Shown here piece by piece: positions 5,211-63,729 of a stretch of DNA of 64,000 nucleotides (within the stretch, counting starts at the first letter, position 1; each line of letters begins with the position of its first letter). Source of the stretch: Octopus vulgaris. Its lineage: Eukaryota. The notes under the pieces were generated by a model that did not search any database, had not been told where the DNA came from, and worked only from the letters and a program-made list of their open reading frames with translations. The position numbers were made by a program, and so were the translations under genes. The stretch covers positions 45,942,001 through 46,006,000 of the forward strand of contig OX597822.1 of the NCBI GenBank assembly GCA_951406725.2, given 5' to 3'.

Positions 5211-7074
5211 AACCCATTAACTATCTCCAAATACATTGCTTATCTAACCACTAAGTTTAGTGATGTAACACAAATGGATGAAGCAATTTTCCATATTATT
5301 TTTACTTTTATAAATACTAGGAAAGTACCCTTGGGTTGTAGGGTGACATGCCATGCATGAGGAAACCTATTGAGTCAAGTACATCAACATCGAAATGAAA
5401 TCAAATTACAATCAAATGGAATTTGTAGTTGAGGTCCCTACGCCAGCGGTACATAAAAAGCACCATCCAAGCATGGCTGATGCCAATCCCCTTACCCCAA
5501 CTGATTTCTGTGCCAGTGGCATGTAAAAAGCACCATCGGAATGTGGTCAATGCCAGCACCATTTTGACTGGCTCCTGTCCGGTGGCACGTAAAAAGCACC
5601 ATCTGATCGTGGTCGATGTCAGCCTCCACTGGCCTCTGTGCCAGTGGCACGTAAAAAGCACTCACTACACTCTTGGAGTGGTTGGTGTTAGGAAGGGCAT
5701 CCAGCAGTAGAAGCATTGCCAGATCAGATTGGAGCCTGGTGCAGCCTCCTGGCTTTTCAGACCCTAGTTGAACCATCCAATCCATGCCAGCATGGAAAAC
5801 TGACGTTAAACGATGATGATGATGATGACAATGATGATAGGAAACACTTGTATGTGTACCAAAGAGAGGAATCAGCAACATCTTGCAAAATAGCTGTTCA
5901 AAAGTTGTTTCTACACAGCAACATTCTCCAGTTGCTACAATCTATTGAAACATTGCTGTGATATGCTGATTAACACAATTTGATAGGTTTATCAGTTGCT
6001 GTGTATGATTAGATCCAAGGAATCTTGTATGGATTCAGTCTTGGGATGGGCTACTTGGCACAGTTTGATGGTGACAGTAGTAGCTGTATATAAATAAGTA
6101 TTGTGCTGTGTGTGAGTGTGTATTTGTTATCAAGATGAATGGTAATATGCTGTACTTAAGAAAACTTGTCCATTTGAGCAAAAGTGAGTTCCTGTCAAGC
6201 CTTCCCCTACGACTCATCTTGTAACGCTCATTCATCCATCAGTCTTCTGCCGGACCCTATTTTCTTCCTTCACTTCTCCTCCACTGAACTCAATCCCCAT
6301 CTCTAATCTCTGTCACACTATTCTCGCACCCACGCACTCACCTCCCTGACCACCTTTTCTGCTCCTCTATCTTATTCTGTCTTATATATTCACTTTGTAC
6401 TTCGACCTCACATCTCTCTCTATGAAAGAGTCATGAGGCCTTGTATGCATACATACATACATATACATATACAGGTGTATGTGTATAAAGATTTGATAGC
6501 CTTCAATAAATGTATAAAATCTATCATCTGTGTGTATTTTTAATACACACACACATTTACATATATTCCGTCCAACCTATGCAAGCATGGAAAAGTTGAT
6601 CTTAAAATTATATATATATCATCGTCATCGATTAATGTCCGTTTTCCATTCTGGCATGGGTTGGACGATTTGACTGAAAACTAGTAAGTTAAGGAGCTGC
6701 ACCAGGCTCCAAACTGACTTGGCAAGGCTTCTACAGCAGGATGTCCTTCCTAACGCCAACCACTTCAAGAGTGTAGTAGATGATTTTATTTGTCACCAGC
6801 ATGGGTGCCATTGACCTGACACCGGCATCAGCCAAGACTACGGTCTCACTTGGCTTGACAAGTCTACACAAGCACAGCATATCACCAAAGGTCTTGGTCA
6901 CTTGTCACTGCCTCCATGACGTCCAGCACAGGTGCCAGTCAGACAGCACTGGCTTTGGCCACGACTATGATTTTCCTGGCTTGACAGATCTTCTCAGCAC
7001 AGTATATCGCCCTACATTTGAAAGGTGCTTTTTATGTGCCAGTTACGTGACACACACACACATATATGTTTGTA

Positions 7075-7121
<47 letters not shown>

Positions 7122-7125
<4 letters not shown>

Positions 7126-7508
7126 GAGTGGCTGTGTGGTAAGTAGCTTGCTTACCAACCACATGGTTCCAGGTTCAGTCAAACTGTATGGCACCTTGGG
7201 CAAGTGTCTTCTACTATAGCCTTGGGCCGACCAAGGCCTTGTGAGTGGATTCGGTAAACAGAAACTGAAAGAAGCCTGTTGTATATATGTATATGTATAT
7301 ATATGTGTGTGTGTTTGTCCCCCAAACATCACTTGACAACCGATGCTGGTGTGTTTACGTCCCCATAACTTAGTGGTTCGACAAAAGAGGTCAATAGAAT
7401 AAGTACTAGGCTTACAAAGAATAAGTCCTGGAGTTGATTTGCTCGACTAAAGGCGGTGCTCCAGCATGCCCACAGTCAAATGACTGAAACAAGTAAAAGA
7501 GTAAAAGT
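7122..7508 (+). mobile_element. tRNA-derived SINE family B
   Basis: Head gtggctgtgtggtaag...ggttcagtc (pol III A/B-box-like). Copies at 4388-4748(-), 10140-10740(+), 25120-25470(-), 28688-28920(+), 37410-37890(-) and 63280-63597(+). Confidence 0.8.
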
Positions 7509-8539
7509 TATATATATATAAACACACATATATATGTATGCGTGTGTGCTTGGTGGAACAAGCAGGAGAAACAGAACTGAATACATAAATGCATTCATTG
7601 CTTTTGAGGAGTGGGGGACGGATGATTTATGAGAGTTGCTTAAGAGTTCCAGGCATGGCACTTACCAAACAATTACAACTTTTCTGCTGATTAAAGAACA
7701 AAGTGTGTGTGTGCATGTGTGTGTGTTTAAGCTATAAGATAAAATAAAACGAAATATAAACCACAAGTTTATATAAATTAAAATAAATGGTAATTAAGTC
7801 AGTTTAATTAGTCGAGAAGCTGGCAGAAGCATTAACACATCATCATCATCATCGTCGTCGTCGTCATCATCATTCAATGTCCGTTTTCCATGCTGGTATG
7901 GGTTGGGTGGTTAGATGGGAGTTGGCAAGCCAGAGAGTTCGGCTAGGGTCTAGTCATCTGTTACGGTATGGTTTTTAGAGCCGGATGCCCTTCCTAACAC
8001 CAACCACCTTACACAGTGTACCTGGGTGTCTTTAACATGGCACCAACACAGGTGCTCTTTTGTGGTGCCTTTTACGTGACGCCAATATGGGTGCCTTTTA
8101 TGTGGTGTTAGCACAGGTGCCATCATGTGGTGCCAGCACAGGTGCCAGCACAGGTGCCACAACAAAAAACTCAACTGCATTTCTTCTGGCTGTTTACATT
8201 CTGAGTTCAAATGCTGCCAAGGTAGACTTTGCCTTTCATCCTTTCATCCTTTCATCAACTATCCCCAAACCCCACCACCACCATCACCATCAAAATTCTG
8301 ACCTTGGGCTAAAATTAGAAAGTATAAGTGAAAATAAATGTATAATAAAATAAAATCATATTTTTAATAAATATATTTCATTATTTGTTTTCTTTTTAAG
8401 TCTTATTGTTTACATAAATTACATTCTGATTTAGCTGTTTATATTAATTAGCATTCTGATATGGCCATACAAAATTATTGAGCATTTTCAGAAATTCTTA
8501 CCTGAAAATACAGCAGTGAGTTTGGTTTCAAATATATTT

Positions 8540-8847
8540 ACACATGTGCACACATGCATGCACATGCACACATGTATGCACATATGCATACTAACGCACA
8601 TATGCAGATACAGACATATATACAAATACAGATGCACACACACACACACACACCATATACAGATATACACACACACATACACGTGCAGATACAGACATAT
8701 ATACACATACACATCACACACACATACACATTTGCACACACATATGCAGATACAGACATATAAACATACAAACACACATGCTCACACACACATACACGCT
8801 CCCACACACATATCACACACACATTCACACACACACATGCAAATACA

Positions 8848-8903
<56 letters not shown>

Positions 8904-9455
8904 CAAACACACACATGCAGATACAGACATATATACACATGCAAATACACACACACATACCACATACACATACACATGCAGATACAGACATATATATACA
9001 CATTCAAACACACACACTGCACACACATACACACTCACACACACATGCAGATACTGACATAAACACATACAAACACACATACATGCACACACACACCACA
9101 CAAACATTCACACACACACACACATGCAGATAGACATATACACATACAAACACACAGACACACACATACACACACACCATACACACACACCATACACACA
9201 CACACACCACATGCACACACACATACACACATGCAGATAGATATATACACATACACACACACAGACACACACATACACACACACACACACCACACACACA
9301 TGCAGATACACACACACCACATGCACACACACACATGCAGATACACACACACACACATGCAGATAGACATATACACATACAAACACACATATACACACAC
9401 TTATACACACACACGCACGCACACACATGCACACACATACATCATATACACATAC
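8540..9455. repeat. Compound CA-rich micro/minisatellite with recurring cacatgcagata(c/g)a unit
   Basis: Seen directly in sequence. Confidence 0.95.
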
Positions 9456-9656
9456 AAACTTTTTGTCAACCAACTCAACATTGCATTCTGGATCCATTGT
9501 AAATCGTGACAGAAACGATGTTCCCCACCCATTTTCATGAAGGAAAAACACAAGGAAATGTCAGAACTTCATTATTAATCTCTATTCTATATAAATATGC
9601 TTTATAAGAAAATAAACCCTGAAATTGTGTATGTTGGGTTGTTGTGTATTATCAGC

Positions 9657-9975
9657 TGTGGAGGCACAATGGCTTAGTGGTTAGTGCAACAGACTTGTGG
9701 TCATAGGTTTGCGGTTTCGATTCCCATACAGGCGTTGTGAATGTTTATTGAGCAGAAACACTTTCTCTCACTCTTTCTTCCTGTTCCTGTTGTACTTGTA
9801 TTTCAAAGGGCCAGCCTTGTCACATTCTGTGTCACGCTTAATCTCTCTGAGAACTACATTAAGGGTATACATGTCTGTGGAATACTCAGCCACTTGCACG
9901 TTAATTTCACAAGCAGGCTGTTCTGTTGATCGGATCAAGTGGGACCCTCATCATCGTAACCGACAGAGTGCCGTT
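9657..9975 (+). mobile_element. tRNA-derived SINE family A
   Basis: tggcttagtggttag...gtttcgattccc A/B boxes. Copies at 30341-30717, 32262-32760 and 54360-54572. Confidence 0.8.
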
Positions 9976-10946
9976 TATCAACTGTTCTCAGTCTTGGTTT
10001 GGCTGTGTAGGTTAGAAGCATGGGGTCTTGGGTTCAATTTCTCTGTGAGGCAGCTTATGTAAACATCTTCTATTATAGACCCTGGCCAACCAAAGCCTTG
10101 CGAGTGAGTTTTGTTGAGGAATACTGAAAGAAGCCTATTGAGGGCACGGCTGTGAGGTAAAAAGTGTGTTTCCCAACCACATGGTTCTGGGTTCAGTCCC
10201 ACTGTGTGGCACCTTGAGCAAATGTTTTCTACTATATAGCTCCAGGCAGACCAAGTCTTGTAAATGAATTTGGTAGAGGGAAACAGAAAGAAGCTTGCTA
10301 TGTGTGTGTGTGTGTGTCTTTGTATGTATATATGTTTGTATCTGCATGTATATGTGTGTGTGATGTGGTGTGTGTGTGTATGTGTGTTTGTATGCGTATG
10401 TATGTCTTATCAACATGTGTGTGTGCGTGTTTGTGTATGTATTTATGCGTGCTTGTATGTATCTGTGTGTCTGTGTATTTGTATGTGTTTCGTGTGTATG
10501 TATATGCATATGTGCATGCATGTGTGTGTGTATGTTGTGACATTCTTTGTCCCCACCACTACCATCACCACCACTGCTTTATAACTTGTATTGGTGAATT
10601 TACATTCTTGTAACTTAGCAGTTGGACAAAAGAAACCGATAAAATAAGTACCAAGCGCAATTCAATCAACTAAAAATTCTTCAAGGCAATGCTCCAGCAT
10701 GGCCGCAGTCAAATGATTGAAACAAACACGAGATTGAAGATATAGGTATTCTTTTGTTCTTTTGTTCATATATTTGTTTCAGAGCACCGCCTTTAGTCGA
10801 ACAAATCGACCCCAGGACTTATTCTTTGCAAGCTTAGTACTTATTCTATCGTTTACTTTAGCCAAACTGCTAAGTTACAGGGATGTAAACACTCCAACAT
10901 TGGTTGCCAAGCGATGGTGGGGGGGGGGACAGATACAGACACACAA

Positions 10947-10984
<38 letters not shown>

Positions 10985-11106
10985 GCGCGCGCACACACAC
11001 ACACACACACACATATAGTTGGAATTTACAAAAAACAAAAGACAAAGACAAGTGTATAAACAACAAAAGAGGTGTATTAGTTTAATGCTTGGGAAGGTGA
11101 GAAAGT

Positions 11107-11142
11107 CTTTTACATTTCGAGCCTATGCTCTTCAACAGAAAG
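11107..11142 (-). ncRNA. Minimal hammerhead-like motif (gagc/gctc family), core CTGTTGA
   Basis: cttt-CTGTTGA-a-gagc(atag)gctc-GAAA-tg-TA-aaag. Related copies at 20212-20246(-), 23124-23159(+) and 62563-62597(-). Confidence 0.55.
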
Positions 11143-11224
11143 GAACATGAGAAAATAAACAGAGAAGGAATAAAAAAAGCTTTAGTGGTTAAAAAAAGCT
11201 GATATATATATATATATATATATA

Positions 11225-11840
11225 GGAAAACCTGGGACGAGGTGGTGAAGCACGACCTTCGAACTTTAGGTCTCACCAAGGAAATGACTAGAGACTGAGA
11301 CCTATGGAAGTATGCTGTGCGTGAGAAGACCCGGCAAGACTAGTGAGAACATAACCTGTGGCCTACATACTTTTCCTTCTTGGGACACAAAACTCCACTT
11401 GTGAAGACCCGTTGAGGCAAGTGAAAATCAAAATCAAAATCAAACCAAATCAAATCCGATATCAGAAAGCAGAACCAAAATCGAAGTCAATCAACATCAA
11501 TGGAAATTGCAGCTGTGGTACCAGTGCTGGTGACAAGTAAGCGAGCCATCCGATCGTGGCCGTTGCCAGCGCCGTCCCGACTGGCCTCCGTGCTGGTGGC
11601 ACGTAAAAGCACCATCCGTTCATGGCTGTTGCCAGCCTCGCCTGGCCCCCGTGCCGGTGGCACGTAAAAAGCACCCACTACACTCACAGAGTGGTTGGCG
11701 TTAGGAAAGGCATCCAGCCGTAGAAACACTGCCAGATCAGACTGGGCCTGATGCAGCCTTCTGGCTTCACAGACCCCAGTTGAACCGTCCAACCCATGCT
11801 AGCATGGAAAGCGGACGCTAAATGATGATGATGATGATGA
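11225..11840 (+). mobile_element. RTE LINE 3' end/3'UTR with (GAT)n tail (very abundant family)
   Basis: KTWDEVVKHD followed by gtggcacgtaaaaagcacc subrepeats and ggaagggcatccagc...cccatgc(t/c)agcatggaaagcggac...(gat)n. Other copies near 2440-2893, 5330-5838, 6620-7050, 7840-8160, 13910-14318, 18968-19628, 29160-29543, 60935-61455 and 62930-63270. Confidence 0.8.
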
Positions 11841-12437
11841 TATATACGATGGGCTTCTTTCAATTTCTGTCTACCAAATCCATTCACAAGGCTTTGGCTG
11901 GCCTGAGGCTATAATAGAAGACACTTGCCCAAGGTGCCATAGAATGGGACTGAACCTGGATATATCATCATTGTAGAGGTGTGTGGCTTGGTGGTTAGGG
12001 TATTGGATTCGTGATCAATTGTGGTTTCAATTCCTCGACCAGATGATGTGTTCTGTTCTTGAGCAAAACACTTCATTTTACATTGGTCCAGTCCACTGAG
12101 CTGGCCAAAATTAGTAATCTTACAATGGACCAGCATCCCATCCAGGTATGAAATATATAACACCATGAAACCAGGAAACTGGCTTTATGATTCAGCTTGT
12201 CTCAAAAATTTAACTTTACCTTTTACCTTATATTCCCCTCCTCCTCCTCCTCCTCATCATCATCATCATCATCATTATTAGTTAACATCCATGTTTTATG
12301 CTGGCATGGGATGGATAGTTTAACAGGATTTGATGGGCCCAAGGCCTGCATCATGCTCCAGTCTCTGCTTTGGCAGGGTTTCTACAACCGGACGTTCTTC
12401 TTAATGCCAAACACTTTACAGTGTTAACCAGTATGTA

Positions 12438-13335
12438 TACAAGGTGTTCGGGGGCTGAATTTGACAGTTTGCATTCAAGGAAAGGAAAACAGTAAACCAT
12501 CCAAAAATAAAAGTATATCCAAAAATCAAAAATTTATCAACCAGATCATGGCAGGGAGATAACAGTTTACTCAAATTAGCTGCCCTCAGCTTCCACCCTG
12601 GCCTCAAAACAGCTCCAGAACCTGGTACATGCATTCCTGTATCCCTTGGAAGATCTTCAAACACCTCCTTGATCTTGGTCACAGGTTCGGCCTTGGTGTT
12701 GCAGCCAGAGTGATTGGTGTCTTTCTCAACTGCACCCCACCCACAGTAATCCATGGGATTACAATCAGGGGGATTAGGAGGCCAGAAATTAGGGATAGAA
12801 AAGTTGTAAAAAGTTTCTAACATCCACTTCTCTTTCCAGAGGTATGGCAAGGTGGGTAAATCCTGCTGCTACACATATGGCCTTCCAGCAGTAACCCTTT
12901 CCAGCCAAGGATTGACCACAGTCCCCAGTAGCTTCGCGTAGCTGTCTGAATTGAGCCTAAGGCCCTGTTCAAAGATGTGGAGTGGCATAACATCATATTC
13001 ATTGGAGACACACCCAAAGACCATCACAATTTGGGGGAACTTGGTTTTCATAATACGTGGCACATCATAGCCTTTACAATATTCACAGAACACTGAGCAG
13101 CAATCATGACGCTGGCATTTTGACACCTGGCATGAATCATCATTATACAGGTAACTCTTTTCCAATATTCAGATGGCTTCCAGTCTTCCATGACAGTTAA
13201 TTTTCTCTCAACTACAACTTACATCTCCAAAACTTTTACTCTCCAACACCATTTTCACTTTTCACCAATACGTTGAGCTATTCCTGAAAAAAAGGAGATG
13301 TAAAAATCATAAAATTTAGCCTGAACATTCTGTGT
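12438..13335 (-). mobile_element. Decayed Tc1/mariner-superfamily transposon
   Basis: ORFs 12869..13165 and 12416..12850 (KTKFPQIVMVFG...WPPNPPDCNPMDY). Imperfect TIRs tacaaggtgttcggg / cctgaacattctgtg. Confidence 0.85.
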
Positions 13336-13628
13336 GTATGTGCTTTTATGTATATCCTTATTTATGCATCATGGGAAGGTTGAAAATGAGCCTCATTGTC
13401 ATACAGGGGAGGTTGTTTATTCCCAATCGTCCAGTGAGAAATATGTCTGGCCATTGCGGAAATGTTAACTGGCTTGGAAACAGGTGATGGTTGGTGACAG
13501 GAAAAGCATCCTGCTGTAGAAAACTTGCTTCAGCAAATTCCTAGCAAGAGGCAACTGTTTTCTAATAAAGAAACAAGAACTCTGTCACTGGAATTGCATA
13601 TGTGTGTGTGTGTGTGTGTGTGTATTTG

Positions 13629-13714
13629 TGCAGCTGAAGATGGAAAAGCATTTAAATTGATGTAATGATTGCATTGTTCAATTAAACGGAGCTGCTTGAA
13701 ATAGTTGTAGTGCA
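13629..13714 (+). ncRNA. Degenerate type I hammerhead motif with long stem II
   Basis: tgcag-CTGAAGA-[57-nt foldback]-GAAA-tagttg-TA-gtgca. Stem III looks like a decayed cagctg. Confidence 0.5.
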
Positions 13715-13771
13715 TCACTACTTGATACCCTGTTGCTTATTTTGATCATATAAATATATATATACATACAT

Positions 13772-13821
<50 letters not shown>

Positions 13822-13864
13822 ATATGTATGTATGTATATATATATATGTATGTATGTATGTATG

Positions 13865-13910
<46 letters not shown>

Positions 13911-14317
13911 TCATCATCATCGTTTAACGTCCGTTTTCCGTGCTAGCACAGGTTGGATGGTTCGACCAGGGTTTGGGAAGCCAGGAGGCTGCGCCAGGCT
14001 CCAGTCTGATCTGGCAGTGTTTCTATAGCTGGATGCCCTTCCTAATGCCAACCACTCCGTGAGTGTAGTGGGTGCTTTTTACGTGCCACCAGCACAGGTG
14101 CCAGGGGAGGCTGGCAGCGGCCACGATCAGTTGGTGCTTTTTACGTGCCACCGGCACAGGTATCACAACTACAATTTCCATTTGATATTTATTTTGATGT
14201 TGATGTACTTGACTCAATAGGTCTCCCCAAGCATAGCAAGTAACATGCCACCGGCACAGAAGCCAGTCAAGGCAGTGCTGGCATCGGCCACGTTCGAATG
14301 GTGCTGTTTACGTGCCA

Positions 14318-14699
14318 TGTATGTATATCTGTATACATGTATGTATATCTGTGTATACATGTATGTATGTATATGTGTGTATACATGTATGTATATATAT
14401 GTATGCATATGTATATAAGCTATGAACATACACATTGTTATTTTGGGGCGTAGTGCTGTTTATAGAATCATAAATGTAATCACAGGGAGTTGAGTGCAAC
14501 ACCAATATGTTTTTTTTATAACAAAAGTTAGACACCGATTGTGTTAATTGTGAGTAAGCTTGAAAGGGCGTGTGCTCGACTTCGTGATATCTGTGTCTGT
14601 GTGTCTGCAGGTTAGTTTTTTTTTGTTTGTATGTATGTATGTATGTATGTATGAATGTATACATGCATGTATGTATGTATGTATGCATGTATGTATGTG

Positions 14700-14733
<34 letters not shown>

Positions 14734-14821
14734 TGTATGTATGTATGCATGCATGCATGTATGTATGTATGTATGCATGCATACATGTATGTATGTATGT
14801 ATGCATGCATATATGTATGTG

Positions 14822-14855
<34 letters not shown>

Positions 14856-14945
14856 TGCATACATGTATGTATGCATATATGTATGTGTGTATGTATGTAT
14901 GTATGTATGTATGTATGCATACAGGTATGTATGTATTAATGTATT
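14318..14945. repeat. (TATG)n compound microsatellite blocks
   Basis: Seen directly in sequence. Similar TA/CA tracts at 590-712, 4064-4388 and 20317-20610. Confidence 0.95.
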
Positions 14946-15039
14946 TATACAATAAGATTATTCTCCACTTGTTTTAATTACACAATACATATATTTAAAA
15001 GAAACTTTTGACACCTTTTCAACTTTCAACTTTCTCGCT

Positions 15040-15977
15040 GTATGTGGCCAAGAACACCTTGATGGAAGAACACCTTTCATCTTGAAATCAAAGATGGTTG
15101 TTTTTCTTCTAGTGCTGACTTAAGCCGCTCAAGCTGCTTGCAGTAGATCTCCTTTTTTATTGCTTGGTTTGGATTTAAAACTTCAAAGTGGACTAAACCT
15201 TTCATATCCCACCAAACAGATAACAACACCTTATGTGGGTGAAAACCTTCTTTAGTTTGGGGTGCCGGTGTTTCTTCTTTCCCTACCCATTGTCTTCGGT
15301 TCCTGACATTTTCATAGAGAACCCATTTCTCATCACCAGTCACTATTCAGTCCAAAAAAGTTTCATTTGTGAGGTATGACAGCAAAGAAAAGCACACATT
15401 CACTCTCTATGTGTGATTAGACTCAGATGGTTTGCAAGGAACCCATTGACCCAATTTGCTGTCTTTTCCAGTGTCACGCAGGTATCGATGAATGGTTGAA
15501 TGACTAAATCCAAGCTTCTCTGCTAGTTCTTCAACAGTTATGATGGGATTTTGTCCCACCAGGGTTTGCAAAATGTCCTCATTGAGCTCTACAGATCTTC
15601 CAGGGCAAGGCTCATTTTCCAGGCTGTAATTTCCAGCCTGGAATTTCTGGAACCACCGCTCACATTGGCTTACACTTATTGTTCAAGCCCCATATACTGC
15701 ATTAACGTTTCCTTGCATTTTCCATTGTGTTGTTGCCTTTATTGAATTCATAAAGCAATATAAGACAAATATTCTCCTTTGTCACTTCCATGATAGCTTT
15801 TAACAAAAATATATGTTAAAATCAAACTGCACTCTTCAAAACTTGCACTAAGAATAAGCATAAGGTAAAATAACTACCTGCATTATAACAAGTTGATGCA
15901 GGTAGTTTATCCAGTTCCTCTCTGACTTTTAGTTCATGCAAGTGAAAAACCCACATTATTTATGGGATGACTCAATA
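15040..15977 (-). mobile_element. Decayed mariner transposon, 5' half
   Basis: ORF 15077..15343 TGDEKWVLYEN...KVLLSVWWDMKG. Terminus atttatgggatgactcaata is related to that of the 1.5-2.2 kb copy. Confidence 0.9.
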
Positions 15978-15980
15978 TAT

Positions 15981-16444
15981 ATATAAATTTATAAATAAGA
16001 ATAATATTGATATTTAAGTATCGATCTTAAATATCAATTTTATCCTTATTTATAAATTTATATATTTTGTCATTGTATTCACTGCGGTATTTATTTTGAT
16101 AATATCACATGGGGAGCTGTCAGGCAGGCAAATTTAAGCTGGTCGTGTACATACGTGCATATATATGTATGGGCATTCATATATGTGAGTATAATGTATG
16201 TTCTGTATATATATATATCTGTATTTATGTGCTATCTGGTATATTCAACTGAAGAAGGCAGAGCTTCTCTTATGCAAAGTCAGAAATCCAGGATCTTGAA
16301 TTATCCAGAAAAATCTTTTTTGCTAGTTTATTTTGCCTGTCTACTCTCCTAGTGCTATATGAACATTTAATGTGGCCTTAGGGTCAGGGTTTTGACTGCT
16401 ATTTCAGCGTGGTGGTATCTCTCAGGTACCCTAATTTATAGTTT

Positions 16445-16450
<6 letters not shown>
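15981..16450 (+). mobile_element. Older single copy of the 480-bp HHR element family with a short inverted 5' end
   Basis: Colinear similarity to the 21.5-22.8 kb unit (ttcactgcggt, catacgtgcatat, gatcttgaattat, tatgaacatttaa, gactgctattt). Ends in (TA)n. Confidence 0.75.
16236..16308 (+). ncRNA. Type I hammerhead ribozyme motif (diverged relative of the 480-bp array HHR)
   Basis: ctgg.tat.attcaa-CTGAAGA-a.ggc...gtc.a-GAAA-tcc(a)gga-TC-ttgaat.tat.ccag. Predicted cleavage after 16295. Confidence 0.75.
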
Positions 16451-16510
<60 letters not shown>

Positions 16511-16989
16511 CCACCCAACCACACACACATGTATGTATGCGTGAATATATGTATGTACATTTGTACGTATGTATATCTGTGTGTGTGTGTCTATGTACAT
16601 GTTACATATGTGTATAAATAACTATTTGAATAGAATATTTTGTTGCATTCAAAATTTTGTTGGATTATGAGCCAAATTCTTATTCAAGCAAAATAAAATT
16701 TGTAAAGAAATATCTTCCTTTTACATGTTTTATAAAAAGCGGGTGTGGCAAATAAAACCTTTTCTCTTTTCCTTTGAACTGGTGACTGATTATTTCTATA
16801 TTCATATTTTATTTGTTCTTCATTAATAGAAATAAACTCAAGTTCCGTCAGTCAAGGTTGTACTCAACACTTATCGCAAATACTGGCTTATTATTTATTT
16901 GTGAGGCCGCGTTACAGTTGATTTGATGTAAAGGTTGTTAACAAATTTAATAAGACTCTTACATCAAAAATGCTATATGATCCTTTTGG

Positions 16990-17450
16990 ATGTGTAATGC
17001 CAGTGTGCATACACAACAGAGTGTAAGTGCCCTGAGGGAAAAGTTGGACATAAGAAGCATCTGATGTGGTGTGCAAGAGAGATGACTGTGCTGGTATGGT
17101 CATGTGTTATGTATGGATGAGGACAGCTCTGTGAAGAAGTGCAACACCTTAACAGTGGAGGAAACCAGTGGAAGGGGTAGGCCCAGAAACACCTGGGATG
17201 AGATGGTGAAGCATGACTTTCAAATGTTGGACTTCTCAAGGGCAATGACAAATGACCAAGACCTTTGGAGATATGCTGTGCTTGAGAAGACACAGCAAGC
17301 CAAGTGAGACTATAGGTGTGGCCCAGGCCAGAGTCATATAACCGGCCTATTTAAACATATCCTTCAATTGTCAGGCAATATGCTGTGCTTGAGAAAACCT
17401 GTTGAGTCAAATGAAATCATTGTTGTGGCTGTTGCCAATACCACCTGACT
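16990..17450 (+). mobile_element. RTE-clade LINE ORF 3' fragment
   Basis: WYGHVLCMDEDSSVKKCNTLTVEETSGRGRPRNTWDEMVKHD. Related pieces at 11225-11460 and 24430-24900. Confidence 0.8.
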
Positions 17451-20074
17451 GTTCATTCTTTAAAACCAGCACTTGGTATTCTTGGTCATCAATACATTTA
17501 CCATCAAAATGCAATGATCAGTTTTCTAAATGTAGCGTTTTCTTCATTTTCTTTTTTTATCTTAACAGCTTTGATAGTTGGTCTATAAATACTGGTTTGG
17601 GAAGGAGTCTTGGCATTGATTCCATCTTGATATCACTGTCAACAAACTGTTGCTGCTTTTTAGATAGATAGCTTGGAAGATATTACTAACTTGGTTGCAG
17701 TTCCAGTTTTGCTATACTTCCTCCTTGTTTGTGTGGATTCTTCATCTGATTTTTCAGATTCACTTTCAGTCTCTGCTTCAGACGTTGATGATGACACTGG
17801 AGTTGCTCTGGTTGAAGTTGGATGGATGGCTAGTTTTGGAACTGACTGCTTTTCCAGTTCCATACTCAACCTGTCCCTTGCTTTCATTTGAAGATAATTT
17901 AACCTTCAAGCCTCACTGCACAGCCATTCACCGTTTTCCGTTGTGATATCAAAAATTCCTTTCAGTGAATCATATTTTCCTTGTTTTACACATTTATCGT
18001 TGGTATTCAGCACTTTTTCTACTTTTGCTTGTATATTTTAAATTCATAAATATGGGAAATTTAATTTCTTTTGCCATATAAAAGTTACTTCTTTTGGAAT
18101 TTCTTTTATTGTTTCTTTCCTTTCCTTTGATGGTACCTCCAAGAAACAGGTAGCGACCAACAATTTGAAGTTTCATTGGTGTCCTGTAGTTGTTTTCCAA
18201 AGAATGTCTTCTAGAGGAACAAGTCTTCTTTTTCTATGTGAGTCTTAAAATTGCACAAGATTCTGTGACATAGGCACTTCTCTTATGAGACATTATTTTA
18301 GATACTCTAGTTGGATAAGCCTAATATTCTGAAAAACAATTAATATTGGCAGGATTTTTAGCATCACAGAAATAAAAAGGAGAGGTAGAAGATATTTCCT
18401 AAAGTAGGGCCTGAGTTGTAACAAATTAAAAACTCTATAACTCCTAAACTACTCAAACATGAAAGCTGAAATTTGAGATATACTGCTTCTGCATGGCATT
18501 AAGTCAGCAGACCAAGTTTGGTAAAATTTTCAGTAGGCATGACACCCCCACCCACTGAAATTATGCATGATTTGGGTCAAAAGTGGTGTTAGATTTCTTC
18601 AGTTGGGAGTGACGTTTTTTAACTTTTTGAAATTGTTCATCGACTTCTGATACAGGAAATTGTTTACTTCCATAAAGATCAAAAAGTCATAACTCTAATA
18701 TGTGTATTTAAATATACTAGCTTAAAAGCTGCACTCAGTGTAGACTTTTAAGATAGCTCCTGTGGATAGCTAATAGGGCTTGTGGCCCAAAACTAAAGAG
18801 GACTAAATAACATGACTGTAATGCATCTATAATGACTATATGACCTGGTGGTGTTTGATCAGAGGTCAAGGATGGATAAGAATTAATTCTGTAATGCAAT
18901 CATTCTATTGTTCCAGTCTTAATTTGAAATCCAGCTGTTGGCCAATTTGTTCCAAAGTTCTTATCTCATCATCATCATCATCATCATCATAATCGGTTAA
19001 CGTCCGTTTTCCATGCTAACATGGGTTGGATGGTTCGACCAGGGTCTGGGAAGCCAGGAGGCTGCACCAGGCTCCAGTCTGATCTGGCAGTGTTTCTACA
19101 GCTGGATGCCCTTCCTAACGCCAACCACTCCGTGAGTGTAGTGGGTGCTTTTTATGTGCCAGGCGAGGCTGACAACTGCCACAATCAGTTGGTGCTTTTT
19201 ATGTGCCCCTAGCAAAATATATATATATATGTATATATATATCATCATCATTTAATGTCCGTTTTCCATGCTAACATGGGTTGGACAGTTCAACCGGGGT
19301 CTGGGAAGCCAGGAGGCTGCACCAGGCTCCAGTCTGATCTGGCAGTGTTTCTACAGCTGGATGCCCTTCCTAACGCCAACCACTCCATGAGTGTAGTGGG
19401 TGCTTTTTACGTGCCACTGGCACAGATGCCAAGGGAGGCTGGCAATGGCCACGATCGGTTGGTGCTTTTTACGTGCCACTGGCACGGAAGCCAGTCAAGG
19501 CAGCGCTGGCAGCGGCCACGTTCGGATGGTGCATTTTACATGCCACCGGCACAGGTATCACAACTACAATTTCCATTTGATTTTTTGATGTTGATGTACT
19601 TGACTCAATAGGTCTCCTCAAGCACAGTATGTGTATAGATATATCATCGTCATCATCACAGTGTGTGTATATATATATACACACACCAGGGACATGCTGC
19701 CTAGGTAGCCAGTGCCTACCTTGAATAAAATAGATTGATAGCAATATTTTCCTTTCATGGCAAAACATGTACCTAATTCAATAAAATTATGAAGGTTACT
19801 CTGATTACTATGCATAAAATGCAAAATATTATATTTTTTGTAGATTAGGTAGGCATAATTCGTCCTTGCCTTTCAATCTCAATATATAAGTAATGCATAG
19901 AACTGCTATAGTACATGTGCTACGTACACTCTTACAACAATGTTTTCTTTACGTGTTACAAAGGCAAAAGTAAATCTGCCTTCAACTCAGTCACGTGTTT
20001 CACTTATTTTTTGTGTGTTTTACAACATAAATGTCACCAACTGCCTACCCTGAGTAATTACTGACAGCATGTGC

Positions 20075-20552: not shown

Positions 20553-20604
<52 letters not shown>

Positions 20605-20609
20605 AATAA

Positions 20610-21002
20610 TTGTGTACAGTGCTCAGGTGCACTACAACTCATCTAAAGTGTATATATAATCAGGTGTAGTTTCGGCGGATTTCGGAAAGCATGAGGGCCT
20701 TAAAGGATGCAGTGTCATGGCAGTCAACAACTGACGCAGGCAGTTTATTCCATGCTTCAGCAACTCTGAGCGTGAAAAAATGTTTCCGAAAGTCATGGGA
20801 GCTGTGTTGTTTTCTGACTTTGTAGGCATGTCCATGTGTGTTAGACACATGGAGATCAAAAAGGTGTTCAGTGTTGTTGTTGGTGAGGTGGATGATAACT
20901 TTGTGGGTGTTTACCAAGTCCATCGCCAGATGCCGGAGCTTCAGTGAATCCATACCCAGGGAAACAAGGCGCTCAGAATATGGTAGGTGTCTGATGGAGG
21001 GT
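20610..21002 (-). mobile_element. 5'-truncated CR1-clade LINE 3' end
   Basis: ORF 20660..20953 with THGHAYKV...RKHFFTLRVAEAWNKLP...FK, the CR1-type ORF2 C-terminus. (ATT)n tail. Confidence 0.85.
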
Positions 21003-21037
21003 ATATATATATAAATATATATATACGTGTATATCTA

Positions 21038-21090
<53 letters not shown>

Positions 21091-21316
21091 TTATATATGA
21101 GGATAATATCGATATTTAAGTATCAAATTATCAAGTGGCCAGCATGAAAAAAATACCTTACAAAGGTAAAAAATTTTTTAACAATTAAAAATGAGGGTGT
21201 CTAAAAGACACCAACATGCCGAAATAGCAGTCGAAATTCTGACTATAAAACCACGTTAAATGTTCATATCGCACCATGAGGTAAAGCGGAGGGACAAAAC
21301 ATACAAGCAAAAATTA

Positions 21317-21390
21317 TTGAATAATTCAAGATCCAAGGATTTCTGGTTCTGCTTTAAATAAGCTTTACCGTCATCAATTGAATATATCAA
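21317..21390 (-). ncRNA. Hammerhead motif in the inverted 480-bp unit
   Basis: Reverse complement of 21683-21756. Confidence 0.72.
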
Positions 21391-21682
21391 GGGTACATAA
21401 ATACAGATATATATATGCACAGCAAACGATATACTTACATATACGAGCGCCGTACATACATACATATGCACGTATGGACACAGCCATTTTAATTGCCCGC
21501 CAAATCACCGCATAAATACGATATGGTTAAAATACGATATGGTTAACCATATCGTATTTATGCGGTGATTTGGTGGGCAATTAAAATGGCTGTGTCCATA
21601 CGTGCATATGTATGTATGTGCGACGCTCGTATATGTAAGTATATCGTTTGCTGTGCATATATATATCTGTATTTATGTACCC

Positions 21683-21756
21683 TTGATATATTCAATTGAT
21701 GACGGTAAAGCTTATTTAAAGCAGAACCAGAAATCCTTGGATCTTGAATTATTCAA
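21683..21756 (+). ncRNA. Type I hammerhead motif, unit 1 (core UUGAUGA, C3U variant)
   Basis: ttga.tat.attcaa-TTGATGA-c.ggt...gctt...aagc...acc.a-GAAA-tcc(tt)gga-TC-ttgaat.tat.tcaa. Predicted cleavage after 21743. Confidence 0.75.
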
Positions 21757-22162
21757 TAATTTTTGCTTGTATGTTTTGTCCCTCCGCTTTACCTCATGGT
21801 GCGATATGAACATTTAACGTGGTTTTATAGTCAGAATTTTGACTGCTATTTCGGCATGTTGGTGTCTTTTAGACACCCTCATTTTTAATTGTTAAAAAAT
21901 TTTTTACCTTTGTAAGGTATTTTTTTCATGCTGGCCACTTGATAATTTGATACTTAAATATCGATATTATCCTCATATATAAATTTATATAATTCGTTAT
22001 TATATTCACTGCGGTGCTTATTTTAACCATATCGTATTTATGCGGTGATTTGGTGGGCAATTCAAATGGCTGTGTCCATACGTGCATATGTATGTATGTG
22101 CGACACTCGTATATGTAAGTATATCGTTTGCTGTGCATATATATATCTGTATTTATGTACCC

Positions 22163-22236
22163 TTGATATATTCAATTGATGACGGTAAAGCTTATTTAAA
22201 GCAGAACCAGAAATCCTTGGATCTTGAATTATTCAA
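22163..22236 (+). ncRNA. Type I hammerhead motif, unit 2
   Basis: Identical to unit 1, shifted by 480 nt. Confidence 0.75.
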
Positions 22237-22642
22237 TAATTTTTGCTTGTATGTTTTGTCCCTCCGCTTTACCTCATGGTGCGATATGAACATTTAACGT
22301 GGTTTTATAGTCAGAATTTTGACTGCTATTTCGGCATGTTGGTGTCTTTTAGACACCCTCATTTTTAATTGTTAAAAAATTTTTTACCTTTGTAAGGTAT
22401 TTTTTTCATGCTGGCCACTTGATAATTTGATACTTAAATATCGATATTATCCTCATATATAAATTTATATAATTCGTTATTATATTCACTGCGGTGCTTA
22501 TTTTAACCATATCGTATTTATGCGGTGATTTGGTGGGCAATTCAAATGGCTGTGTCCATACGTGCATATGTATGTATGTGCGACACTCGTATATGTAAGT
22601 ATATCGTTTGCTGTGCATATATATATCTGTATTTATGTACCC

Positions 22643-22716
22643 TTGATATATTCAATTGATGAAGGTAAAGCTTATTTAAAGCAGAACCAGAAATCCTTGG
22701 ATCTTGAATTATTCAA
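22643..22716 (+). ncRNA. Type I hammerhead motif, unit 3
   Basis: Shifted by 960 nt from unit 1; one substitution (gatgaagg versus gatgacgg). Confidence 0.75.
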
Positions 22717-23259
22717 TAATTTTTGCTTGTATGTTTTGTCCCTCCGCTTTACCTCATGGTGCGATATGAACATTTAACGTGGTTTTATAGTCAGAATTTC
22801 GACTGCTATTTCGGCATGTTGGTGTCTTTTAGACACCCTCATTTTTAATTATATATATATATATATATGTAAACACAATAGAGGACATTAAAACATTTGG
22901 ACAGATGATACAAAGGCGGACAAGAGAAATATCAATTAGAAGGACAGGCAAAAAAAGTCAGGTCATTTGTGGCTTTCTTTCCTCAGTCAAATTCCAGAAG
23001 TCACGACCATTTCAGGCAGTTACACTTGAGATGATACGATCTGGTTGCCCTTCAATCATTTGCCATGCCTGACTGCTAATTCCACAAGTATTTTATTCTC
23101 TCTCTGTATATTTTCTCATATTCCTTTCTATTGAAGAGTGTAGGCTCAAAACGTAAAAAAATTTGTCACTTTCCCAAGTGTCAAACTAATACACCTGTTT
23201 GTTGTTCATACACCTGTCTTCGTCTCTGGTTTAACTGTAAATTTCAACTATATATATTC

Positions 23260-62832: not shown

Positions 62833-63729
62833 TGACCAATTTTCTGTTAATAATAAACTATTATTAACTTCCTAATCTCCATTTTCTTTTCTTCTTTTAA
62901 ATGAATATAAACTATATATATATATACATGGTGCCTGACTGGTTCCCGTGCCGGCAGCACATAAAAAATACCATTCAAGCAGCTTGGTTGATGCCAGTGC
63001 CGCCTGACTGGCTCCCATGCCAGTGACATGCAAAAAGCACTATTCAAGCATAGTTGATGCCAGTGCCACCTGATTGGCCCTCGTGCTGGTGGCACATAAA
63101 AAGTACCCATTACACTCTTGGAGTGATTGGCATTAGGAAGGGCATCCAGCTGTAGAAACCTTGCCAGATCAGATTGGAGCCTGGTGCAGCCTCCTGGCTC
63201 TCCAGACCTCAGTCACAATGTCCAACCCATGCCAGCACAGAAAGCAGACATTAAACAATGATAATGATGATATAAGATGCAAGCATGGTTGTGTGGTTAA
63301 GAAGCTTCCTTTGCAACCACTGAGTTTCAGGTTCAGTCCTACTGTGCAGCACCTTGGGAAGTGTCTTCTTCTATAACATAGGGCCAAAATTTTGGAAGAC
63401 CAAAACTGTGTGGAGCTCATGGTGTGCGTGTGTGTGTTTCTGATTGCTTGACAACCGGTGTTGGTTTCTTTGCATCCCTGTAACTTGGCAGTTCAGCAAA
63501 AGACGGTCGACAGGATAAGTACCAGATTTAAAAACAAGTACTTCAACATAGTGCCCTGGTGTGGCCACAGCCCAATGACTGAAACAAGCAAAAGATGATA
63601 GGTAAATGTTCAATAACCGAGAGATGGATGGGAAATTAAAAGAGTCTAATTCTGTATATCATGACAACCAGAAATGTTGTCTTGCATTCGTTTACAATAA
63701 ATACAGTTTATGAAATCCTTCTTCATGAA

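Follow-up and report, generated by a model that had tools for sequence, protein, structure and literature searches.

A dispersed 480-nt hammerhead repeat of Octopus vulgaris with insertion ends of the Penelope type

How does a short non-coding repeat with a hammerhead ribozyme (HHR) motif come to stand in inverted and tandem copies between TA runs of the Octopus vulgaris genome, and does its ribozyme still work? The array that raises the question lies at positions 21002-22869 of the window, which here means the whole 64,000-nt stretch analysed (GCA_951406725.2, contig OX597822.1, positions 45,942,001 to 46,006,000, forward strand). A sequence-only reading had taken it for a recently active, non-autonomous ribozyme retroelement related to retrozymes or Penelope-like elements (PLEs). 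The explanation that we favour, at a probability of just under 60%, is a dispersed non-coding HHR repeat whose tandem RNA is predicted to cleave itself and would be reverse-transcribed in trans by PLE machinery. Taken separately, the judgement that this is a PLE-driven non-autonomous retroelement is very probably right, on the genomic patterns described below. Published sources are cited for those portions of their text that were available. The features of the locus are as follows.

21002..21081, no strand: left (TA)n target run (sequence reading, tandem-repeat search)
21082..21182, minus strand: outer 101-nt tail of the inverted arm, unit positions 1-101 (locus L001, end analysis)
21183..21534, minus strand: inverted arm, unit positions 129-480 (complementarity to the array)
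21324..21383, minus strand: type I HHR motif of the inverted arm, predicted cleavage after 21330 (motif reading)
21514..21546, no strand: junction of the inversion, containing a short palindrome and a duplication of 16 nt (sequence reading)
21543..21890, plus strand: direct unit 1, 5'-truncated, unit positions 133-480 (tandem-repeat search)
21690..21749, plus strand: HHR motif 1, with its cleavage site predicted after 21743; co-transcription with the inverted arm is predicted to trap it (motif, fold)
21891..22370, plus strand: direct unit 2, full, likely a local duplication (variant pattern, inference)
22170..22229, plus strand: HHR motif 2, predicted cleavage after 22223 (motif, alignment)
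22224..22703, plus strand: predicted 480-nt monomer between HHR motifs 2 and 3 (inference)
22371..22850, plus strand: direct unit 3, full, stopping at the primary 3' end of the family, position 480 (end analysis)
22650..22709, plus strand: HHR motif 3, with its cleavage site predicted after 22703 and a private change at 22663 (motif)
22851..22869, no strand: right (TA)n target run (sequence reading)

Unit positions 1-480 are numbered on window positions 22371-22850. Tandem Repeats Finder reports a period of 480 with 2.7 copies and 99% matches at 21543-22850, preceded by an inverted arm (21082-21534) that is 98-99% complementary to the direct array. The direct units differ from one another by 2, 2 and 4 substitutions, and the inverted arm differs from units 1 and 2 by 4 and 6. 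The outline given by the sequence-only reading, with a 480-nt period, few substitutions between copies, one inverted copy ahead of about 2.7 direct ones, and (TA)n bordering the array on either side, is borne out in full. So is the absence of coding capacity: no stop-free frame of at least 120 aa overlaps 21083-22850, frames of about 100 codons are present in the 480-nt unit, and 12 window ORFs compared with Pfam gave no match. Unit 2 shares the variants of unit 3 on the 5' side of position 216 and the variant of unit 1 at position 430. A single duplication with a crossover between 216 and 292 would explain this mosaic, and the three direct units probably owe some of their near-identity to local duplication after insertion. 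Immediately before the array, between two TA runs, lies a LINE-like 3' end (20594-20990, minus strand) with a frame resembling the C-terminus of a reverse transcriptase (RT) and an AAT tail, labelled by eye without a Pfam match. Another abundant repeat, with mutually related 66-67-nt tandem units, occurs in the window at 11524-11675, 19399-19554 and 62934-63107.

A type I HHR motif is found in all four units of the locus, with the elements that had been described for it. The cleavage-site nucleotide C17 is unit position 333; the three positions earlier proposed on the plus strand (21743, 22223 and 22703) are correct, and a fourth lies at 21330 on the minus strand. The AUC triplet and the G10.1-C11.1 pair are present, and an extra A stands between C11.1 and G12 in 22 of 22 aligned sequences. 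One detail of the earlier description needs revision, namely the single unpaired base of stem II, which is instead an extra base on both sides (C on the 5' side, A on the 3' side); in unit 3, A replaces the extra C 5' of stem II (22663). U3 occurs in 126 of 126 copies of the young family to which the window copy belongs and G8 in 127 of 127. The canonical C3-G8 (or U3-A8) pair is absent from the core of this family, whereas older sister families have C3-G8. The change from C3 to U3 is a state of the family and not decay of the window copy. The Rfam search that had been proposed as a check gave 49 matches for the window region at E≤5, none to a hammerhead family, and six C3 sister loci likewise gave no hammerhead match at E≤1 (release 15); the microRNA matches obtained stem from TA repeats and inverted arms.

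The evidence that the motif is a hammerhead comes from these sisters. A search pattern combining the canonical CUGAUGA core with stem II of the window motif (the C3 pattern) matched 37 genome sites against 1 in the control, and its U3 version matched 263 against 1. The C3 sites belong to older sister families, 65-90% identical, which share the layout of an HHR, a primary end about 150-165 nt downstream, and a tail; a tandem period of 440-520 nt was seen in eight of 26 older sister loci, with 4 probable chance matches left out. At least five older HHR-repeat sister families can be told apart (L136-L165, L256-L270), which have different stems I and III and the same end and tail motifs. An alignment of 22 sequences was made from the window motif and 21 of the first 30 C3 sites, leaving out 4 probable chance matches, two near-duplicates and three poorly pairing members. 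In it, all six stem I pairs are altered on both sides (44 both-side changes), and 90.9% of cells are paired, a value reached in 0 of 500 shuffles. Across 31 unselected sequences, the 4 probable chance matches included, stem I arms pair at 4.3 of 6 positions with their own partner and at 2.6 of 6 when crossed. The invariance of stem II is partly set by the search pattern itself. Stem III is palindromic in every sister group and has no stability as a hairpin; as a duplex it reaches -8.9 kcal/mol in the young form, which corresponds to the dimer arrangement known as a double hammerhead (PMC4209133). A three-helix layout with the open end in stem I, backed by covariation, is that of a type I HHR, and the conservation of the stems upholds the identification made from the window sequence. 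With stem I covarying in this way, the motif can be taken to descend from a selected ribozyme, and almost certainly from a functional HHR.

The sister families also give an order of events, from C3 with a 1-nt loop III (87-90% identical to the young consensus), through U3 with a 1-nt loop (90-92%), to U3 with a 2-nt loop. The U3·G8 core therefore predates two later amplification waves, and the lineage went on amplifying after its core had changed. Between the young family and its closest sisters there are 27 fixed differences, none in the core or stems, a comparison biased by the partial use of HHR patterns to pick both sets; those within the motif, two of the 27 together with one inserted base, all fall in loops.

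The genome searched comprises 2.8 Gb in 227 contigs. The unit search gave 1792 candidates, and among the 40 scored there are full-length copies 95-98% identical on many contigs. An exact 20-mer from the 3' half of the HHR occurs 241 times (control 0). The first 100 of these matches listed define 60 loci on contigs 1-5 (5 in part), a sample unbiased with respect to copy length, from which a family of about 145-150 loci is scaled. Copies are 1.3% off the consensus, and divergence is 1.0% within loci (73 pairs) versus 2.2% between loci. If a calibration in which a distance of 0.09 equals 25 million years (PMC13282606) applies, the family would be about 1.5-3.5 million years old. The proposal that the element was recently active is therefore well supported by its low divergence and its near-identical full-length copies. 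Occurrence on many contigs, variable 5' truncation and fixed 3' ends indicate dispersal by retrotransposition, with a presumed RNA step. Duplications or deletions inside an arm at four loci (L111, L124, L098, L120) suggest template jumps in reverse transcription.

Could the array nevertheless have been produced in assembly? Inverted repeats next to TA runs are difficult for assemblers, and unit 2 seems to combine parts of units 1 and 3. Against this, the arms are several substitutions apart, the architecture of the window locus recurs at 32 independent loci, and contigs of independent public runs contain the unit and both TA-bounded ends. Since the same architecture is found at dozens of loci, the array is not an assembly artefact, and the chance that it is can be regarded as negligible.

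The ends of the 60 loci carry most of the argument about mobility. Thirty-seven are head-to-head inversions and 23 are single arms. In 32 of the 37 inversions, one outer end at position 480 is paired with one at position 101 of the next unit; the remaining five have one irregular end, and in no inversion do both ends belong to one class. Of the single arms, 15 stop at 480, 7 at 101 and 1 at another position. TA runs come directly after 49 of 49 position-480 ends and after 39 of 42 position-101 ends, against a background of 8%, and the window copy obeys the same rule. The inner junctions of the 37 inverted loci are scattered, and neither simple twin priming nor simple fold-back, both considered as explanations, is supported. 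PLEs are described as having an adjacent inverted copy and a 30-40-bp tail at one end, attributed to their endonuclease (PMC8557442, in the portion available). The window family shows the corresponding features of PLE-type integration, namely an inverted, 5'-truncated copy on the 5' side, a tail at one end only, and a bias to (TA)n, as judged from its insertion ends.

A purely DNA-level origin, with an incidental HHR inside a minisatellite, a fold-back or MITE-like element, or a DNA circle, would account for the long inverted arms, which resemble those of fold-back elements, and for the likely local duplication at the window locus. It is very improbable: the arms are unequal, variably 5'-truncated and have different fixed end points, which strongly disfavours it, stem I covaries, and an RT-encoding family of the same genome shows the same end rule.

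That family is a young PLE of the Hydra clade, with the motifs RWK, DKT, CxCx5C, CxxC and CxH in a 947-aa open frame; PLE clade labels here come from motifs and not from a tree. Four copies (L206-L209, at C1:99.95 Mb, C4:45.38 Mb, C3:162.99 Mb and C3:108.28 Mb) are 99.0-99.7% identical over 600 nt, and the element has a type I HHR of its own, in which loop II contains a long insertion. Among 20 loci examined, eight are two-arm copies; six of these eight have a tail on one arm only, with the arm ends about 110 nt from each other, and the other two end early. The link to Penelope that had been proposed is thus supported by genome-wide data, among them TA targeting and the one-tail rule, which this PLE follows as well. 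A second, very young PLE, Neptune-like (L271, L272 and many more sites), has many 781-aa open frames matching RVT_1 and GIY-YIG. It inserts at TA targets with a tail of about 35-40 nt, and close to its 3' end lies a U3-A8 hammerhead. In some Neptune-like copies the 3' UTR contains a second core-like repeat, of the U3·G8 type. Among possible helpers the Hydra-clade PLE ranks first, its tail length being the closest match, and we put this assignment a little short of an even chance.

Is the unit then a detached part of some PLE? The sequence-only reading had suggested looking for copies joined to an ORF with PLE RT and GIY-YIG domains. No such ORF was found between two unit copies in 140 unit or sister locus records or in 141 PLE locus records (overlapping sets), nor any joined copy among the same records. 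Profiles of the HHR and of the end plus tail, run against 141 PLE-bearing records, found only nested insertions or weak TA-rich matches. The unit has no similarity to the 3' end of the Hydra family (score 20, shuffle mean 22), and 3' sequence shared with an autonomous PLE family was not found in the sampled part of PLE diversity; the searches covered the best 141-150 scored of 5,900-18,594 candidates, so that a partner could have escaped. PLE ORFs do lie near some units; those followed either end in 3' sequence of their own or come from families that are old and broken, and the nesting of PLEs and units can be attributed to the TA targets of both. The ORF beside the unit at L018/L031 was rejected as a partner since it has its own 3' end; its family is old, the other members being mostly broken and reaching about 80% protein identity at most, and a search of this ORF against external proteins (longer proteins only) gave no match at E≤1e-10, which is weak evidence. 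Four other candidates (L166, L186, L110, L058) are nested or neighbouring insertions. A GIY-YIG match at L243 (C30:5.22 Mb) is unlike the PLE ones, probably represents an exon of a host nuclease, and was left out of the 141-record profile search.

These results bear on the idea that an autonomous PLE left the units behind as 5'-truncated pseudo-LTR remnants, which unequal exchange later made into arrays. PLE copies are indeed mostly 5'-truncated (PMC8557442; bioRxiv 10.64898/2026.07.22.740005, as far as their available text goes), a local duplication is probable at the window locus, and the sampling, unbiased for about 60 of about 145 loci and limited to the best 141-150 of thousands in the PLE searches, leaves room for such a parent. 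We nevertheless consider it improbable. Arms that reach upstream enter the tail and the previous unit, at 58 tail-to-body junctions in 60 loci, with the end of the previous unit still present at 32 of the 58, and never a 3' UTR or an ORF; all 37 C3-core loci lack a same-strand upstream ORF in the flanking DNA examined; and PLE ORFs beside units end in their own 3' sequence. In the loci examined no copy is attached to an ORF as a terminal repeat, and the element is therefore of the non-autonomous, non-LTR retrozyme type, as had been supposed.

Whether the ribozyme is active in its present form is a separate matter. A U3·G8 wobble probably lowers activity, and the extra A before G12 is atypical. 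When the 63-nt motif is folded on its own, the structure of lowest energy mis-pairs the 5' strand of stem I with stem III bases. Holding the sequence in the HHR fold takes 4-5 kcal/mol for one unit and 19.5 for two, the dimer pseudoknot lying outside the model, and for unit 1 it takes 96 kcal/mol when the inverted arm is included. Read-through of the inverted arm is thus predicted to trap the first ribozyme in a long hairpin, for which reason three cleavages in a read-through transcript are unlikely. The 480-nt monomer is well structured (z -4.5, 0 of 100 shuffles). RNAalifold found no consensus structure in the end-plus-tail region, and a 7-bp helix around the primary end is 91% paired, yet not above shuffles. 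The natural covariant of the C3-G8 pair is U3-A8 (PMC3088659; PMC4209133, in the text available), and the literature yielded nothing specific on U3·G8 or C3U activity beyond the U3-A8 work. Of nine predicted frog dimers, one cleaved in vitro, according to the available part of bioRxiv 10.64898/2026.07.22.740005. We give the present U3·G8 form a slightly better than even chance of still cleaving usefully.

The template is addressed by variants shared within loci. At diagnostic sites, units of one locus have the same base in 85 of 85 pairs at site 414 (50% expected), 65 of 65 at site 306 and 54 of 54 at site 61; the sharing covers direct and inverted units, and haplotypes differ widely between loci. 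One haplotype per locus fits repeated copying of a single monomer, as from a circle; homogeneous linear multimers could give it too. Contigs of public runs guessed to be RNA contain a joint going back 480 nt, as tandem DNA would also give; no starts, ends or circles are seen in these contigs, which by their nature cannot display ends or circles. Two or more same-strand cores occur in only 15 of the 60 loci. A few A/G sites are discordant within loci, in 10 of 35 pair comparisons over 77 loci, six of them from the window locus, and these differences count against one monomer circle alone as the template.

The same PLE-mobilised element could also have a ribozyme that is now weak or vestigial, with linear read-through of tandem copies as the template; loss of C3 may even have helped by sparing templates from cutting. 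The wave with the most copies has U3·G8 as its fixed core (263 U3 against 37 C3 cores), the HHR is not the lowest-energy fold, and the insertion ends differ from the cleavage site at position 333, lying 147 and 248 nt beyond it. Naiad PLEs spread without canonical HHRs (PMC8557442, in part), and the A/G discordance fits units copied from different RNA units. Two observations speak against a vestigial ribozyme: none of the 27 fixed differences falls in the core or stems, in sets biased by their picking on HHR patterns, and the near-perfect single haplotype per locus fits a monomer bottleneck. We judge it unlikely, though to be taken seriously. The favoured reading of a self-cleaving repeat would run as follows. 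The family would be transcribed as tandem RNA, which a ribozyme dimer is predicted to cleave into 480-nt monomers, and these may circularise. A PLE protein with RT and GIY-YIG domains would reverse-transcribe the RNA in trans into (TA)n sites, priming presumably at two TA-like stretches at unit positions 480 and 101. That a monomer circle serves as the template is, in our estimate, only just the better bet.

In its genomic pattern the element appears to work like a non-LTR retrozyme integrated by PLE machinery, and the genomic evidence for PLE integration is clear. It has the sequence characters of such retrozymes, namely tandem HHR units of a few hundred bases, non-coding and with no attached RT in the loci examined. 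The metazoan non-LTR retrozymes described in the available text of PMC7229834 and bioRxiv 10.64898/2026.07.22.740005 likewise consist of non-coding, low-GC tandem units with one type I HHR each, occur as dispersed monomers and multimers with PLEs alongside, and have structured monomers. The window family differs from those in its U3·G8 core and in the extra bases on both sides of stem II. Its 480-nt unit exceeds the 170-400 nt of tested invertebrate circles and falls within the 51-972 bp of the preprint. It consists mostly of head-to-head inversions with a one-sided 101-nt tail, whereas the word 'inverted' is absent from the available portion of PMC7229834; no homologous pseudo-LTR was found for it. 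PLEs are a strong candidate for the autonomous mover of animal retrozymes (PMC7229834), and in frogs PLE co-occurrence is accompanied by pseudo-LTR homology (bioRxiv 10.64898/2026.07.22.740005), to go by the same portions.

Endonuclease-bearing (EN+) PLEs, including the Hydra clade, likewise show tandem and inverted insertions, a tail at one end and (TA)n, and their HHRs are likewise type I, near the 3' end, with a palindromic stem III and an extra base between A9 and G10.1 (PMC4209133; PMC8557442, both in part). The window family differs in having no ORF, in its tail of 101 nt against the 30-40 bp described (PMC8557442), and in showing no resemblance in sequence to those PLE families that were examined. 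MRC1 and other non-autonomous Chlamys derivatives of Chlamydomonas also form multicopy head-to-tail insertions by PLE machinery; those derivatives generally share 3' sequence with autonomous families, whereas the window family has no matched partner, and most Chlamys elements lack the canonical HHRs, whereas the window family carries an HHR (PMC8557442, in the portion available). With the Rfam hammerhead families it shares the core and the layout of three helices, as read by eye and from covariation, yet none of their models matches the window region or the six sister loci. No description of an octopus retrozyme was found in the literature searched; the supplements of PMC8557442, PMC4209133 and bioRxiv 10.64898/2026.07.22.740005, or the repeat library of PMC13282606, may name the family otherwise. 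A squid genome paper reports 235 Rfam hammerhead matches.

The family makes the signature of PLE integration countable, with one tail per inverted insertion and TA targets, in a genome where young open-frame PLEs of two clades are testable helpers. Its fixed U3·G8 core raises the question of whether hammerheads of this form function or whether retrozymes can do without cleavage in their spread. In both cases genomic searches for hammerheads are affected, because Rfam and canonical descriptors miss the family. No host function is suggested. More speculatively, and in our view doubtfully, the family could be an old, self-perpetuating ribozyme-circle lineage of about 480 nt that is no living PLE's terminal repeat, that has amplified in several waves (65-99% identity) as a parasite of PLE enzymes via its two TA-like priming sites, that has fixed an active U3·G8 core, and into which A-to-I edits may be written back. 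Were this so, it would be a minimal substrate for working out the one-sided tails and inversions of PLEs.

Traces that could reflect such editing are seen in the copies. Recurrent A>G sites outnumber T>C sites by 8 to 1, with one of the eight mis-polarised, and 20 of 23 A>G sites follow T. Fixed lineage changes comprise ten T>C versus four A>G, and single-locus changes are strand-symmetric. The pattern is suggestive of A-to-I editing of the family RNA, with TA/TG slippage as a rival explanation for the A>G sites. In contigs of public runs guessed to be RNA, at low depth, clustered A>G differences were observed at window positions 22126-22261 (run X7) and recurrent A>G at 22307, 22328 and 22351 (runs X9 and X10), possibly from editing of double-stranded transcripts of the inverted arms.
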